A stretch of 64,000 nt of DNA from Paecilomyces variotii. Taxonomy: Eukaryota. The stretch lies in NCBI GenBank assembly GCA_004022145.1, contig RCNU01000003.1; one strand, written 5' to 3'. Within the stretch, counting starts at the first letter, position 1; each line of letters opens with the position of its first letter. A program made the position numbers and the translations under genes. Positions 55,652 through 62,983 of this stretch are shown one piece after another. A model generated the notes under the pieces. It made no database searches. It was not told where the DNA came from and saw only the letters and a program-made list of their open reading frames with translations.

Positions 55652-56230
55652 GAGTGGTTGGTTAGTTGGGAAGATTTTTATGCTTGTCGCCGAACGGGCG
55701 CTTCTGTGCCTAATATATATGTGGTGATCACCCTTCCATGTGATAACACAGTTGGGGGGACTTTTGCTACTAGTAGATATATTGGTTTCTCTTTGATTAT
55801 TTGAAATCGTAGAAACTGCTATTGAGAAGAAATACTCTTTGCCTCTTTAGATTCTCTTCTGTGCAGTAACTAGTTAGTGTTAATTTTGTACTACGATAAT
55901 GAGACGTTGCATCTTGTAGTTAACTACCGGGCTATCTATGATTTACTCGATCGACTTTTTCAGTGGGTAAGGTGTATAATTGGAACCATAGCTCTGAGAG
56001 ATTGCATTCCCGCATACTCTAGTAAGTAGATTGTTCCCTAAAGGCTCGGGAAACTCAAACTAACAGTACTACTCAGGATCACATCCTGTCGCTCAAGATA
56101 TTCCTTTTTACCTCTTTGCGGCCACTAATAAATATCGACTCGACGTAATTAGCTGCGAAATCAAATATTTCCGTACATCAAGTTGCAAAATCCAAGGGGG
56201 CCAAAAAAAATTACAAAAAAAAAGATGAAA

Positions 56231-56393
56231 CGTCAGCGACAGGATTCGAACCCTGATGAGTATGTTAGCATGTTATTGTATTTTATAATACGATTCGTAT
56301 TAGACTTACTGTGCGGGCGAACCCATTCGATGTCTACTGCCTATCAAAGATAGGGATTCGAGTCGAACGCCTTAACCACTCGGCCACACTGAC
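56231..56393 (-). tRNA. tRNA-Ser(CGA), copy 1, with canonical anticodon intron (56332-56356) and a GT-AG spliceosomal-type intron in the T-stem (56253-56309)
   Basis: Exons 56393-56357, 56331-56310 and 56252-56231 join to an 81-nt cloverleaf: acceptor GTCAGTG/CGCTGAC, A-box TGGCCGAGTGG, anticodon stem TTCGA/TCGAA, variable arm GGG-TTCG-CCC, T-arm ACAGG-TTCGAAT-CCTGT, discriminator G. Oligo-T terminator downstream. Confidence 0.9.
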
Positions 56394-57480
56394 TGCTTAA
56401 TTACTCTTTTCAGTTTATGTGTTAGATCAATCTGTTCTTCACGACAGATAGAATGGACCCCACGAGCGGCGCTTCGCAGACCTATGGTACTTGTTTGGAC
56501 ATCCTAACATCTTCGTGAGATTCTTTTTGATCGATTTGCGCGTACGAATCATTATTGACCTCGAGCTATCAATGCATCAACACCCAGAAACAGTCGAAAT
56601 ATCCAGATTCTCGCTATATCTGCATTTCTATCCGACAATCAACAGTTGTCTGCGCTAGCGCGTACTGTAATACACCTCTGCTACATGGAACAACGAGCTG
56701 TGCACCTTAATAAGTAATAAATCTGCTTTGACGAGGAGGGATATAAAGGAGAAGTTCCAGTTACTCACGCAGTCTCCTGGAAAATATCTAATTTCGTTGA
56801 CTCGCTCAGAACCTCTGCTTAGCCGACTGGCTTTGCTTCCGTCGAGGAAGAGTTCTCAATCTATACTGCGATTCACCCTATCATGGTTCCGTAATGGGGT
56901 ATTTTTACCTTGAGGGAATTAGAGTAGAATAAATGTAGCCTAGATATGCCACTGGCGTGGGTGTACCGCCCATATAAAGCGAGAATGCCATCAATTGCCA
57001 TGCATCTTTTGCACGGTGAATGGGCATGTAATCACAAACTGTCCAAAGGTTTCATCTTGCAGCCTATTTAATAAGGAAGGACTCAAAACAGAGGATTGTC
57101 GTAATAGGGCAAGGGGCATTCCAAGGCCGATTATCGACAGTTATCGTTAACCTACAATATCCTTTTTAGGTATAAGAGTAAAGTTAAATAGTACTGTGTA
57201 ACACAGACACACGGCAGGCTAACGTTTACATTGCATTGCGTCTTGATTGAGCTAGCACCCAGTGGAAGGTCTGTCAATGGTATCATCTCGAGCTACACTG
57301 GTCTATTCCCACTCATCATGACATGGTACGTAATAAGGTAGCCCACAAGTACTAAGTGACAGGCTGCAAAGTAAAGTTAAGGAGTCGAATATTTGGTCTG
57401 AAGTATGTACATAAGAAGGAATTATCTTACATATACAAAAAGCGAAAAATCTCCAAGAATAAGCGTCGTCATAACCTATT

Positions 57481-58539
57481 TCAATCCGATCCCTTCCACT
57501 GCTCCATAAATGCCTCAATACCCCCTCCGACTCCTTCTGGACTAGGCTTCTCAGCACACACATCCGGATCGAAGCCATATTTCGAACGAAGATGATCCCT
57601 CGTCGTCGGCCCGATCGTTGTGATGAACTCCCTCCTTCCCTTATCCTCGGATGTTGAAGTCGACGAACCAGGCAAGAGATCCAGTACTTTCAACATGGCA
57701 TCACACCCCGTTGGGGAAAATACCACCGTCCACAGCGCCCTCTTTTCCTCTCCACTTGATATATACTGTCTTCCACTCTTGACCGCTCGCGCAAAATCAT
57801 TCTCGAATGAATCCATCACTCCCGTCTCATAGACCACGAGCTCGTCAACTTGGATCCGCTCTCGCGATGGTAAAGACTCATCCATTAGTGTACGTGGGAT
57901 GATGTCTCTGCGCTGTTCGCCGACGAGGAAAAGGAGGGACGGCTTCGGATTTGTAGTTTCGTTCTCGTTTTCCGGGTAGAGACCATTGTAGTGCTCTAGG
58001 ATCATCCGCGCGAGGTTCTCGCCGTTCCCAGCTTCGGAGCCGTAGAGCTGCGCATGAGGCAAATGTGTGGATTGGATCGAAGAGAGAGAGCGAGAGGTAG
58101 CGGGTCCGACAGTGTAGAGAATTAGGGATTTGGATGCACTTGTTGCTTTTAGGACTGGTTTTCGTCTGAGTCAGAAAAATTCATGGCATAGAGCTTCAAG
58201 CAAAGGTTCAGATTGAAAGAGAAAACGTCAAGGAAATGCCTGGCACGTACCTCCAATTTCTTCCATAATCCGCGCGAATGCCTCTACCGCCCTCTGACTC
58301 GTGAATATCAATCCGCCATACTTCCGCCCGGATCCTTCATCCAATTGCCCCGAGAGAAAAAGATCCTTCACTATCCTCAAGTTTTCATCGTGGAATCGGT
58401 GCTCCAGCACAGGGACGAAGGTGGGGTTGTAGCCGCGTGATGAGAAGTATTCTTCGTAGCCGTCGTGCGGGGTAGATTTCGTTTTCAGGAGGAAGATGGG
58501 TGGCTTGGAAAAGGAAGGAGGTTGGGTAGATGTGGCCAT
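57481..58539 (-). CDS. HEM4: Uroporphyrinogen-III synthase, 2 exons
   Basis: IFLLKTKSTPHDGY, FVPVLEH, LIFTSQRAVEAF, YTVGPAT, GNGENLA, VYET, FSPTG, IGPTT and KPSPEG. Confidence 0.92.
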
Positions 58540-58928
58540 TGTTTCATGCTCAGTACGGTATAGGAAGACAGTGGACTTGGTCCTTTGGACTGATCTCAGC
58601 CGTCAGATATGCACTTAGCTAAGACTGCTGACGCCCAGCTAAGTTGCGGAGCTCGCGGAGACGTGTGGGGTATATATGAGGATCGGATGGCTTCGTAACC
58701 GCTCTACGCCACGCAAATACCGTTTATTATATGTTACAAGGGCATTTTCAGCACCAATACAGATTGGCCAATATCCCAATATTTGCTCTGTCAATCCAGG
58801 CATTATGATCTACAGAACCGGTGGAAACTAACTACTCTCCACGAAAGCCACCCAGATAGAACACAAATGAAATCAACTAGGTCTAGTCGAGCTTATATAC
58901 ACAAGTTTCAGAAAGAAAACGCACGCAA

Positions 58929-60528
58929 CTACTGGTCGTCCAACACATGCAGGTACTTCTTCTCTTCCTGCTTCTCCCGCTCAGTGGCCGGGGGCAGGTC
59001 GGCGTACTGAGAACTCCGGTAGCCCAGCTGTAGCCTGGTTAGATATCTCATATATAGCTGACTGAGAGGAGAAAAGGCTTACCAGGTAGTGGAAGGTGAG
59101 GTTGCTGAGTTCAGCGGGCTCAATTCCTAGATCCTTAAAGGTCTTGGCTGTGGGGTCAATCTTCTGGTCGATGAATTCCCTCTCGACCTCATCGGCAGAG
59201 AGAGTGGGCCACCAGATGAGCTTGTTGAGCCAGTAAGCAGCCGGCTTCAGGATGGCCTTGGGGAGGTTGATGTGACGGCGGTGCTTGATGATCTCACGGT
59301 CAACGAGCTCAGCGATTTCAGCGGTGGAGTAGTTTTTAGGACCGTAAAGCTCGAAAGTCTCCGAAGCGGTGGTGTCATCGTGCAGCATGCGTTCAAGAGC
59401 GGTGCCAACATCGATAACCTATAATGGTTAGCCGTTGCACTGGTTGCCTTAGATGTCCATCCACTTACGTGAACAGGCCAGTAGCGCTCCTGCATGTGGT
59501 TGGCCGTGAGGAGGTTGGTGACACCAGCGAGCTTGTGGAGCAGGTTGTCTTCGAAACCAAACATGGGCGCAGGACGGACGATGGTAGTCTCAGGGAAGAT
59601 GTCACGGGCGACCTTCTCACCCCATCCCTATCGATATAATTCAGTATGCGCCTGACGTCTCATTAACCGCAGGATGGACGAACCTTGGTACGGAAATAGT
59701 CGGATGGCGAGTCCATGTCTGCGTTGAAGGAGGAGACGTGGATGAAACGGTCAACGTCGTACTTGGCGACTGCTTCCGCAATACGCTCGGTACCATCAAC
59801 ATGAACATCCTCGTAGGAGAAGTTCCTATTAACTCTTCAGCATGACTTCCAACAAGATTTGAGGTAAATTAAAACCAACTTTGTAGGATACTGGCGACCA
59901 ACAAGGTTGTAGACGACATCTGAGTGACGAACACTCTCCTCAATCGACTGGGTGTTGCGGAGGTCGTATTCCTGGACGCGCAAAGGATCAGTATGGCGCT
60001 CAGTCCTTCGTCGAATTGCCAAATCGTACCATGAAGACGACTCTTCCCAGATCACCAGTAACTTTGAGGTGACGCTTGGCCATTTCCTCACGGTAAGGAA
60101 CGACAACGGTGCATCCTTGGCGGGCTGTTGCGATATCAGTCACAAAGCATCCCTGGTGTTCAAGTCATGGCAGACATACCCAGTCTGTTCACAATGTAGC
60201 GGCCCAGGAATCCAGTAGCACCGAAGACGGTGGCAGTATGACCTGCGACTTCATTGAGCCAAAATTCGACGGAAGGAAGAATTAGTAGGGATGTGTACCT
60301 CCAAGGGACGACCTGCGGGAAGAAGACTGTCAGTTAGACCTCGGCACACAACGACAACCCAGCCTTCACTCACCGTCCACCCTGAACCTTGATGATGGGC
60401 TTTCCAGTCCTGGTGATCGACACATCTTGAATAGATCTACGCTGCTGCAATTGGAACTGCGCGCGAGCATTGATGGGTGCGGGGGCGAACGCCCTCGAGG
60501 CGCTGCTGATGGCCCGGGACTTCTGCAT
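58929..60528 (-). CDS. NDUFA9: NADH:ubiquinone oxidoreductase 39/40-kDa subunit (NDUFA9 homologue), multi-exon
   Basis: Mitochondrial presequence, ATVFGATGFLGRY, HLKVTGDLG, VRHSDVVYNLVGR, VRPAPMFGFED. Confidence 0.93.
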
Positions 60529-60993
60529 GGTCGCTCTGCGGATGAATGACTGTTAGAAAAGAAGAGCCCACCAAGTTAAGGACCAATTGACGGTCCGGCA
60601 GCAGTGATCTTGGTGGACGAGACTCACTGCAGAGCTTGAAGCGTTCCTGTGCTTGGTGGTTGCTGGTCCCTCGTCTCCAGAAGTTGAGCAGAGCACGGGA
60701 CTTGCAGCACGATGCGCTAACCCAAATCTGGACACAAATCGCACCTTAATCGTTGAGCCGCATCAAGCATGTACCAATGCCTTTGGAGATATTTCCAACC
60801 TTCAGCAATTGCTGTTCTACCGGAGATATTTACGAGGGATGTATTCCTACTTTTATATAGTTTCAACAATTAGTATTTAAAGAGCTAACAAACTATCATA
60901 GGAAATGCACGTGCCCAGTGCTTTGGACTTCGACCCTCTCTCCAAGAATGACTTGGAAGCGGTACAGCTAGATCATAGAGGACAAACGTGCCA

Positions 60994-61824
60994 TCATGCA
61001 CAATCTGCCCTCGCAAAGAACAGCGTCCTTTGTTGGTCCTTGCCCTTCATGACGAATTTCATTGGCTTCTCCACGACCTGGTAGTCGAACGCCGCCTCTA
61101 CTCCAGCATCTTCGCATAGCTTCCTCACCTCATCGCGTGTAAAGCCATGCTTCCCTATTGTCGCTGCAGCTTCTGGATGATCTTTGTGGAACTCGTGAGT
61201 GTGCTTGTCGGGAACGAAGTCTACGATGAGTAATGTGCCACCTTTCTTCAACCTGTCCGCGAGGCGTTTGAGAGCGAACTCCGGATCAGGGAAGTGGTGA
61301 AGTGCCAAACTGACGACAACTATGTCGAAATTAAAGAGATTTGGTTCACAAAGCTCATCTGCAATGGTTTCACAGAGCAGGTCGCCCTTAAGCCCAACCA
61401 TCTTTTCTGCGACTCCGGCCTCCCTGGCATTCTTGTTGAACTCAGCAATCATGTTGTCGGAAACATCGATGCCTACTGCCTTTGTAACGAATGGAGCCAA
61501 AGTCTATGTGCGTTAGCTTCTTGTGTAGGTGTCTATCTGACAATATCCAATGCATACGCTTGAGACAGTACCCGGGCCACAGGCATAGTCCAAGAGCGTG
61601 ATTTCTTGGTCTCTTCCACCCTCAGTGTCTGTCCATTTGGGACTAATCCAATGACGGCGAGACTCTATCTCGCTGATCAAGAGCTGTGTTGCCTCGGCGA
61701 AGTCAGTTTTGTAATGAGTTGCCTTTTCGCTGTGGCTGATTGTCAGATAATCAAGTCATGACCACACAACTTTCTGCCTGGCTTACTCGAAATAGTGCCG
61801 ATTTGCTTCAGTAAAATGAGACAT
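60994..61824 (-). CDS. Class I SAM-dependent methyltransferase, 3 exons
   Basis: MSHFTEANRHYFD, LLDYACGPG, GIDVSDNM, FDIVVVSLALHHF and LKKGGTLLIVDF. Confidence 0.88.
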
Positions 61825-62494
61825 CTTGATAGGCGACGAGGTTGCAAGTATCCTTTCTTCAACACAAGAAACACAAGAATATGTGGGTTTCTTTGGAATC
61901 GACGTCAAGTGAGAACTGCAGGGTGCTTGTTTAATGCAATTTGAATAAGTAGAAGCCTGCGCAGTCGATATTAAAAGAATAACCGTAAGACCGAATTGGT
62001 TGTATGTGAATCTGGGCTTTTATACCAGGTCCTGGCTCGGAGACATATCGGATACTTCTGATATCGTCCACGATGGGCCCCACTCCAGCTGCAGTAGTAT
62101 CTGCTCTCCAGATGCAGATGGCCCTGGTAAATTATCCGTGTAGCCTAGTTTGGGCTCAAAATGTCTGCTGCGATGGCAGAAAAAAGCAATAAGGAGGGGC
62201 TTTTAACTTTTAGTTCGAGGATGTACCATATGTAGTTCCACCAAGGTAGCAAGGTGGCATAGCTCCCTTTCTGAGCAAGTAAAGGACGTCTTCGACTACC
62301 CTGTTTATTCACGTATTTGGTATCAATCACGAATTCGTTGGCTCAGAAATGGGGAAGTAAGTTACTCCGTTTTGAGTCTGTTGCGGCTCGACAACATCAA
62401 CCATGTCAACCTACCTATGGGCAACAGCAGTCTACTACTCGACTACTCCGGTGTTTGAGACACAAAAAAACAAGAAAAAAAAAAAGAAAGCAAC

Positions 62495-62659
62495 CGTCAG
62501 CGACAGGATTCGAACCCTGATTGGTACATGTTAGTTTATCTTGTTTTTTTCTGTAATTCAGTTCGAAGTAGACTTACTGTGCGGGCGAACCCATTCGATG
62601 TCTACTCCTATCATAGATAGTATTCGAGTCGAACGCCTTAACCACTCGGCCACACTGAC
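62495..62659 (-). tRNA. tRNA-Ser(CGA), copy 2, with canonical anticodon intron (62600-62622) and a GT-AG spliceosomal-type intron in the T-stem (62517-62577)
   Basis: Exons 62659-62623, 62599-62578 and 62516-62495 are identical to copy 1 while both introns are diverged. Oligo-T terminator downstream. Confidence 0.9.
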
Positions 62660-62742
62660 ATAACTGGCGGAAATTTTTGCCAGCGGTAGTCTAATAATAC
62701 TACTCCGCGTGCCTTATCAAGATCGAGGCGATCCCTCCGCGC

Positions 62743-62790
62743 GGAGCTTGTAGCCTGAGTACGGCGCCGCAGAGACACCCGTTTAGCTCC
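62743..62790. promoter_or_regulatory. Two inverted GGAGCT motifs upstream of RPN9 (candidate Rpn4-type proteasome elements)
   Basis: GGAGCT 62743-62748 and AGCTCC 62785-62790. GGAGCT is the motif associated with proteasome promoters in filamentous ascomycetes, but it is short and could occur by chance. Confidence 0.35.
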
Positions 62791-62983
62791 ACGTCGGCCT
62801 TCCTTCAGTGATCACGGCGGAGGGACAGCTTCGTCAGCATACACACCTTTATACCTCGACTTGCTGCCATCGTCCAGCTCTTTAGACCCTGAAATCATCA
62901 TCTTGCCCTCCTTACCTCCTCCTGGGGCCTTGAATTATTCTCTCCGCAGCCCGTCCCTGTTGACACCCGCCTCCTTCCCTACC

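Follow-up and report, generated by a model that had tools for sequence, protein, structure and literature searches.

Two tRNA-Ser(CGA) genes of Paecilomyces variotii with a putative spliceosomal intron in the T-stem

The stretch of DNA analysed here (64,000 nucleotides of contig RCNU01000003.1, assembly GCA_004022145.1, from the fungus Paecilomyces variotii; hereafter, the window) contains two genes for tRNA-Ser(CGA), each of which is interrupted twice, by an intron at the canonical site between positions 37 and 38 and by a longer insert in the T-stem. The first of them (copy 1, 163 nt, 56393..56231) had been described in an earlier reading made from the letters of the window (the sequence-only reading) as a gene for tRNA-Ser(CGA) that has, besides its 25-nt intron at 37/38, a T-stem insert of 57 nt bearing GTAAGT, CTAAC and CAG, and direct inspection of the window agrees with that description in every particular, with the addition that the gene lies on the minus strand. 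In both copies the T-stem insert is located between positions 51 and 52, in the 5' strand of the stem, and the mature exons sum to 81 nt. The sequence-only reading had also stated that exact GT...AG excision leaves an intact tRNA, and ARAGORN does call tRNA-Ser(cga) in each copy once the insert is removed by its coordinates; with both inserts excised, the cloverleaf of either copy is perfect, with a long variable arm, the anticodon CGA and G73. For copy 1, an alternative placement of the cut one base further 3' yields an identical product. An A-box-like sequence, TGGCCGAGTGG, and a B-box-like one, GGTTCGAATCC (the labels follow the general consensus of these boxes), are intact in both copies, and stretches resembling terminators of RNA polymerase III (Pol III) are found directly downstream. 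Copy 1 is followed by TTTCATC and then by nine T, this T9 run lying 7 nt past the gene.

The second gene (copy 2) is new relative to the sequence-only reading and has the same architecture as copy 1. When the whole window was scanned by E-value with Rfam, exactly two matches were obtained, both tRNA, the second of them being copy 2 (62659..62495, minus strand, 29.3 bits). The tRNA model matches copy 1 from end to end, at 28.3 bits (gathering score, 29), with the large insertions at the same two points. ARAGORN found no tRNA in the whole 64-kb window, and none in the genomic copies even with introns allowed. The expectation that standard tRNA finders would miss such a gene is therefore borne out, since ARAGORN misses both copies and the Rfam scores are near the threshold. 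At the window copies ARAGORN also accepts other excisions, of 51, 53, 57 and 85 nt, which means that this program does not fix the borders of the insert; they are fixed by the RNA contig and by the uninterrupted relatives presented below. As described in PMC8450103, tRNAscan-SE searches for non-canonical introns in its archaeal mode only, with bulge-helix-bulge (BHB) models. The features of both genes are collected in Table 1.

Table 1. Features of the two interrupted tRNA-Ser(CGA) genes in the window
Feature	Position	Strand	Remarks
Copy 1, whole gene	56231..56393	-	Rfam RF00005 model 1-71, 28.3 bits; ARAGORN tRNA-Ser(cga) i(38,25) after removal of the insert
Copy 1, exon 1, 37 nt	56357..56393	-	acceptor 5' strand, D-arm with A-box-like TGGCCGAGTGG, anticodon stem 5' strand, anticodon CGA, A37 at end
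Copy 1, canonical tRNA intron at 37/38, 25 nt	56332..56356	-	ARAGORN i(38,25)
Copy 1, exon 2, 22 nt	56310..56331	-	anticodon stem 3' strand, long variable arm, ACA (first three bases of T-stem 5' strand)
Copy 1, spliceosomal-type intron, 57 nt	56253..56309	-	GTAAGT, CTAAC (branch A 12 nt from 3' end), CAG
Copy 1, exon 3, 22 nt	56231..56252	-	GG (last two bases of T-stem 5' strand), T-loop, T-stem 3' strand, acceptor 3' strand, G73; intact B-box-like GGTTCGAATCC at start
Copy 1, trailer with T9 and T8 runs, Pol III terminator-like	56203..56230	-	direct read
Copy 2, whole gene	62495..62659	-	Rfam RF00005 model 1-71, 29.3 bits; ARAGORN tRNA-Ser(cga) i(39,23) after removal of the insert
Copy 2, exon 1	62623..62659	-	identical to copy 1 exon 1
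Copy 2, canonical tRNA intron at 37/38, 23 nt	62600..62622	-	kept in the RNA contig that lacks the T-stem intron
Copy 2, exon 2	62578..62599	-	identical to copy 1 exon 2
Copy 2, spliceosomal-type intron, 61 nt	62517..62577	-	GTAAGT, CTAAC (branch A 14 nt from 3' end), CAG; missing from the X8 and X20 RNA contigs
Copy 2, exon 3 with B-box-like sequence	62495..62516	-	identical to copy 1 exon 3
Copy 2, trailer with T11 and T7 runs, Pol III terminator-like	62464..62494	-	direct read; T11 lies 9 nt past the gene

Evidence on RNA was taken from assembled contigs, which show the presence of a form and carry no single molecule, end or strand. Five runs labelled with the same organism contain between 0.92 and 0.99 of the sampled words of the stretch (one of them may be the source of the window). 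One run with this label, X8, shows no letter different from the window and lacks every mRNA-type intron (11 joints besides that of the tRNA); X8 therefore behaves as spliced RNA of the same strain, the kind of run being otherwise only guessed. In record 18 of X8 (4,147 letters), window positions 61787-62456 correspond to letters 816-1485 and positions 62577-62900 to letters 1545-1868, so that 60 letters are found where the genome has 121 (62456 to 62577), and the missing 61 are exactly the insert of copy 2. The joint ends in CT..AC on the plus strand, that is, in GT..AG on the tRNA strand. The aligner placed it at 56251 to 62577, as 'CT..AC (cut +1)', because the repeat mask covers 62457-62500 and copy 1 has an identical 22-nt last exon. 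The record is contiguous across 62577-62900, and the 23-nt intron at 37/38 is therefore retained in it. Excision of the insert of the copy 2 type in vivo follows the predicted borders, and there is an RNA form that has lost the T-stem intron and has kept the 37/38 intron. The spliced junction whose search in RNA had been proposed in the sequence-only reading is thus present in the X8 contig, and the same junction appears, with 26 letters on its short side, in X20, a run from another study and from a divergent strain (33 other letters out of 369 in the flank).

Unspliced forms are also represented in these data. X18, a metatranscriptome with five mRNA joints, contains an unspliced insert of the copy 1 type in two contigs, the adjacent intergenic bins being without cover, and an unspliced copy-1-type insert is found as well in X20. 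In both runs this insert has one base less near its 5' part and two extra bases between the branch site and the 3' end, all of these indels being outside the splice signals. The depth of the unspliced form in X18 (170, vs 42.5 for a neighbouring mRNA contig) is only a hint, and a weak hint too is the end of the unspliced contig 12 letters beyond the end of the tRNA, inside the T-run, since contig ends are not RNA ends. X17 has none of the mRNA joints, is uninterrupted through the insert of copy 2 and behaves like DNA of a relative that is about 3% divergent; no joined form was seen in X17, which is no proof against an intron-less gene. In the contig alignment no joint was found for the 37/38 intron and none at 56252/56310, a neutral result given that contigs show presence only and that the junction words are shared between the copies.

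A reference set for the size and the signals of the T-stem inserts was provided by ten mRNA-type introns on the minus strand in 55800-62900, proven by contigs of three RNA runs. They measure 50-96 nt, eight of them 50-58 nt; all begin with GT and end with YAG, and positions 5-6 are GT with the exception of one GA and two GC. In those with a CTRAY close to the 3' end, its distance from that end is 9-16 nt. The tRNA inserts fall well within this range, with 57 and 61 nt, GTAAGT, CTAAC at 12 and 14 nt, and CAG, and their signals are optimal. A 5' splice site of the form GTRNGT is provided by GTAAGT in copy 1, in copy 2 and in a third gene, from a metagenome contig (L006), that is described below. 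Segments of 45-100 nt with the stricter combination of GTAAGT, YAG and a CTAAC at 8-17 nt from the end number only five in the 128,000 positions of the whole window (both strands), and two of them are the tRNA inserts. No run of four T was found in either tRNA insert.

A comparison between the two copies rendered a sharp contrast between exons and inserts. No difference is found in the 81 exon bases, while differences stand in 18 of the 61 columns of the T-stem insert alignment (14 mismatches and 4 gap columns; Fisher exact p = 4.7e-8 for exons vs insert) and in 4 of the 25 columns of the 37/38 introns (21/25 shared). The unbroken conserved blocks in the T-stem insert are its first 9 nt, GTAAGTCTA, the internal CTAACA, and its last 5 nt, ATCAG. 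The flanks of the two copies give no alignment; gapped global alignments of them agree in about half of the columns, a raw value that was not calibrated against shuffles. Since the exons are identical while introns and flanks have diverged, both copies would be under selection as tRNAs, which requires that the insert be removed, and the contrast reads as the signature of two genes selected as tRNAs, in whose intron mainly the splice signals appear to be constrained. A tRNA pseudogene was rejected on the same numbers (0/81 exon differences vs 18/61 insert columns, p = 4.7e-8) together with the perfect cloverleaf after excision. We propose that the T-stem intron is older than the duplication that gave rise to the two copies. 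The central claim of the sequence-only reading, that a spliceosomal-type intron is removed from the T-stem besides the intron at 37/38, is supported by the results on several sides: the insert of the diverged paralogue keeps the three splice signals, it is lost exactly in X8, its size and signals are those of local introns, and the two precursors share no BHB fold.

Two observations concern the extent of this gene family. On a 19.5-kb contig of X17 there is a further locus that shares exon 1 of the tRNA (window 62623-62661, with loose ends in X8 and X17) and has a different upstream flank; its 37/38 intron begins like that of copy 1 and then diverges, and the contig data cover its 5' part only. 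In X18 and X20 a variant copy from other strains (56231-56309) was found in which a T-stem insert of the copy 1 type is fused to a trailer of the copy 2 type. This variant suggests additional family members or exchange between copies.

For a wider comparison, the 5' half of tRNA-Ser(CGA) was sought in metagenome contigs, any base being allowed in the anticodon stem, a scan that listed at least 119 stretches with at least 135 matches, none of them from the organism of the window. Among the 135 matches listed, 106 are genes of 80-81 nt without introns, 20 measure 88-123 nt and have extra sequence at 37/38 only, and 9 have no 3' end by the rule used (four cut by contig ends, four irregular, and L006). 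The last of these, on an 872-kb eukaryotic metagenome contig (5706-5857, minus strand of the locus), is a tRNA-Ser(CGA) gene with a 19-nt intron at 37/38 and a second insert of 52 nt, with GTAAGT..CTAAC..AG, by which the T-stem is split in its 3' strand. A T5 run is found 14 nt downstream. Since this insert is in the other strand of the T-stem, it represents an independent insertion. The 81 exon bases of L006 are those of the uninterrupted gene of L071. Moreover, a 21-nt word over the predicted junction of the window genes (16 letters before and 5 after, taken from the window exons) is found uninterrupted in L006, L067 and L071, and excision at GT/AG therefore restores a sequence that relatives have in one piece.

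Excision scans were run over the window and the 119 listed metagenome loci (0.5 Mb), and ARAGORN calls spanning the junction were collected. When the splice signals were required, 902 candidates rendered 8 junction-spanning calls, two of which are the window copies; the other six were discarded as artefacts from ordinary or adjacent tRNA genes. When any GT..AG segment of 30-200 nt was admitted, 547,359 candidates rendered 5,219 junction-spanning calls, of which 14 have no overlap with an ordinary call. These 14 are located at six places, namely the two window copies, the tRNA-Ser of L006, L002, L055 and a 'tRNA-Stop' of L006; the calls in L002 and L055 were rejected because no splice signals are present. 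No further credible interrupted tRNA was found by these scans in the window and the 119 listed loci. As a separate observation, the tRNA-Ser(CGA)-like genes of L005, L014 and L048 lack a normal 37/38 intron; in its place, part of the 5' half or of the anticodon arm is duplicated internally.

From these results we consider it likely that the two loci function as nuclear tRNA-Ser(CGA) genes and that the T-stem of each is split by a U2-type spliceosomal intron, so that their maturation would need the spliceosome and then the tRNA splicing endonuclease TSEN. The conserved GTAAGT, CTAAC and CAG point to the spliceosome as the excising agent. The genes would be transcribed by Pol III, as the intact internal A and B boxes suggest, with a stop in the T-run, and sense read-through RNAs made by RNA polymerase II (Pol II) also exist. 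As long as the insert is present no T-arm would form, and the precursor would be no substrate for end-processing or export. The nuclear spliceosome would then cut out the 57- or 61-nt intron at GT/AG, a step of which the exact excision is observed for copy 2 and the spliceosome is the probable agent. Once the T-arm is formed, the ends could be processed, and TSEN, tRNA ligase and 2'-phosphotransferase would take out the intron at 37/38. The order of the two events, T-stem intron first and 37/38 intron second, is suggested by the RNA contig that has lost the former and kept the latter.

Several points weigh against this interpretation. Both the spliceosomal mechanism and the mature tRNA from the two loci are predictions. 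The junction in X20 falls short of the 31 letters that the alignment rule requires on the short side. Exons 2 and 3 (44 bases) are common to both copies, and so are the junction words, which makes splicing of copy 1 indistinguishable from that of copy 2. Gene conversion might add to the identity of the exons, although this is unlikely, as the tract would have to be limited to three separate exons. The absence of TTTT from the inserts, which could have been taken as a sign of selection for Pol III read-through, was dropped as an argument, given that seven of the ten local mRNA-type introns are also without TTTT. An uninterrupted tRNA-Ser(CGA) gene may exist elsewhere in the genome, and the further locus with the same exon 1, known from its 5' part alone, may be another tRNA-Ser(CGA) copy. 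Finally, the X8 contig with the junction runs through T11 and T7 and more than 240 nt upstream, and it merges with the neighbouring mRNAs, those of a methyltransferase gene downstream on the same strand and of a PSD13/Rpn9-like gene on the other strand. It is therefore possible that the spliced molecules observed are not Pol III precursors but products of Pol II read-through.

Four alternative explanations were considered. The one that survives best, improbable as it is, holds that the two loci are retired tRNA genes, now serving only within long 5' leaders or non-coding RNAs from which the intron is spliced but no mature tRNA arises, and that UCG is read by an uninterrupted tRNA-Ser(CGA) encoded elsewhere or by tRNA-Ser(UGA). 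It would account for the fact that spliced molecules were seen only in long contigs, and the existence of the further exon-1 locus speaks in its favour. The lack of any exon difference despite diverged introns and flanks disfavours it, as do the cloverleaf that is perfect after excision, with G73 and the long variable arm, the T-run terminators retained at both copies, and the same pattern in L006, whose exons are identical to those of an uninterrupted relative.

Next in rank, and likewise improbable, is that a tRNA is indeed made with the help of the spliceosome, but from a Pol II transcript, the insert being removed co-transcriptionally from a capped long RNA from which RNase P and RNase Z would then cut out the tRNA. 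The run of the X8 junction contig across the T-runs, far upstream, and into the methyltransferase gene could be explained in this way. Each copy is located upstream of, and in sense orientation to, a protein-coding gene, and the spliced 71-nt intron at 56698-56768, upstream of copy 1 on the same strand, implies that sense Pol II RNA is made there. A contig that extends over several genes is not, however, evidence of one transcript, and the intact A- and B-box-like sequences and strong T-runs are those of ordinary Pol III tRNA genes. The unspliced contig of X18, which stops in the T-run with the next intergenic bins bare, is a weak hint in the same direction. There is, besides, a precedent for the splicing of a Pol III-made RNA, that of U6 in fission yeast, for which PMC5855946 can be cited.

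Removal of the insert without the spliceosome, by a TSEN-type cut at a BHB or by self-splicing, appears very improbable. The point of excision alone does not identify the enzyme, and ectopic tRNA introns that are cut at a BHB are known in a red alga, according to the text of PMC3978253. Nevertheless, the minimum-energy folds of both precursors contain no helix that joins the borders of the insert, they differ between the copies, and their energies are no better than those of shuffles (z = -1.35 and -1.09), as judged from single-sequence folds. What is conserved between the copies is GTAAGTCTA, CTAACA and ATCAG, and not structure. With 57-61 nt, the inserts do not reach the length of group I or group II introns. 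A chance resemblance or an assembly artefact has a negligible probability and is refuted as far as the data go, since nothing was found in its favour, the same architecture is present in a second copy, the words of the stretch recur in five runs, the strict signal set occurs only five times in 128,000 positions, and the RNA contig lacks exactly the insert.

Returning to the interpretation of two working genes with a spliceosomal T-stem intron, a broader version of it can be put forward, in which we place only a little more belief than doubt. Every tRNA-Ser(CGA) of this fungus would have two introns and would be unable to fold before the spliceosome acts on its Pol III transcript, so that the reading of UCG would depend on splicing. 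Introns of this kind would have entered tRNA genes repeatedly, as the case of L006 indicates, and would constitute a hidden, recurrent class that is discarded by tRNA finders.

The tRNA-Ser(CGA) of budding yeast also bears an intron, and ectopic or multiple tRNA introns, as well as permuted tRNA genes, are known from Cyanidioschyzon merolae, nucleomorphs and archaea. The window genes resemble the genes of this second group in that they are interrupted outside the anticodon loop and by more than one intron. They differ from them in that the introns of Cyanidioschyzon and archaea are defined by a BHB and cut by the tRNA endonuclease, whereas no BHB is present in the folds obtained here and spliceosomal signals are conserved. 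As to the canonical introns removed by TSEN, one is found at the textbook site in each copy (25 nt in copy 1, 23 nt in copy 2); the second insert departs from this type by its location in the T-stem, its GT/CTAAC/AG signals and its lack of a BHB-like fold. In the statements of PMC10275265 and PMC13149111 on this matter, eukaryotic tRNA introns are located between N37 and N38 and tRNA splicing takes place without the spliceosome.

A full-text literature search, whose scope left out most subscription journals and supplements, rendered no paper on a spliceosomal intron in a tRNA gene. The nearest match was a preprint on Mesodinium, in the relevant text of which the tRNA introns are non-spliceosomal. 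The list given in PMC5855946 of non-coding genes with spliceosomal introns comprises the U6, U2, U5 and U1 small nuclear RNA (snRNA) genes and ribosomal DNA (rDNA), and tRNA is not among its entries. It refers to mRNA-type introns in U6, both in fission yeast and in other fungi (Tani and Ohshima 1989, 1991; Canzler 2016), and to spliceosomal introns in ascomycete rDNA (Bhattacharya 2000) and in U1, U2 and U5 of Rhodotorula (Takahashi 1993, 1996). The rDNA and Rhodotorula cases are similar to ours in that spliceosomal-type introns lie in genes that do not encode mRNA, and dissimilar in the class of RNA and in the polymerase, none of them being a tRNA. The likeness to fungal U6 extends further, to a short GT-AG intron with consensus fungal signals in a small, structured RNA gene with Pol III features, whose removal is needed for folding, and to insertions that are lineage-specific and recurrent. 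The window genes are nonetheless not members of the U6 type. Their product is a tRNA and not a component of the spliceosome at its catalytic centre, which means that the reverse-splicing explanation offered for U6 is not directly applicable, and the same tRNA has a second intron of another class, that of TSEN.

If the interpretation is true, it breaks the rule that nuclear tRNA introns occur only at 37/38 and are spliced without the spliceosome, as that rule is worded in PMC10275265 and PMC13149111. To the few non-coding RNAs listed as bearing spliceosomal introns (U6, U2, U5, U1 and rRNA) a tRNA would be added, and the decoding of a codon, UCG, would be linked to splicing capacity. The genes would provide a natural substrate for the action of the spliceosome on a short, structured and probably uncapped Pol III RNA, and for the order in which two splicing systems act. 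It is also possible that fungal tRNA gene sets are under-counted, as ARAGORN misses both copies and the Rfam scores amount to 28-29 bits. The origin of such introns is of interest in its own right, because the reverse-splicing model for U6 builds on closeness to the catalytic centre, a closeness that a tRNA does not have.

Two minor observations were made on other transcripts of the window. The intron at 56698-56768 (minus strand, GTGAGT..CAG), whose splicing is seen in X8 at a low depth (7.8, with a side of 30), belongs to an unannotated sense transcript about 300 nt upstream of copy 1, which may be the long leader of the downstream Metallophos gene. At 60243-60373, also on the minus strand, the contigs of X8 and X20 show 10 letters, from 60301-60310, in place of 127 bases; taking into account the letters shared at the borders, this corresponds to a 14-nt micro-exon, 60299-60312, between the GT-AG introns 60243-60298 and 60313-60373, in a multi-intron gene that spans approximately 58851-60630.

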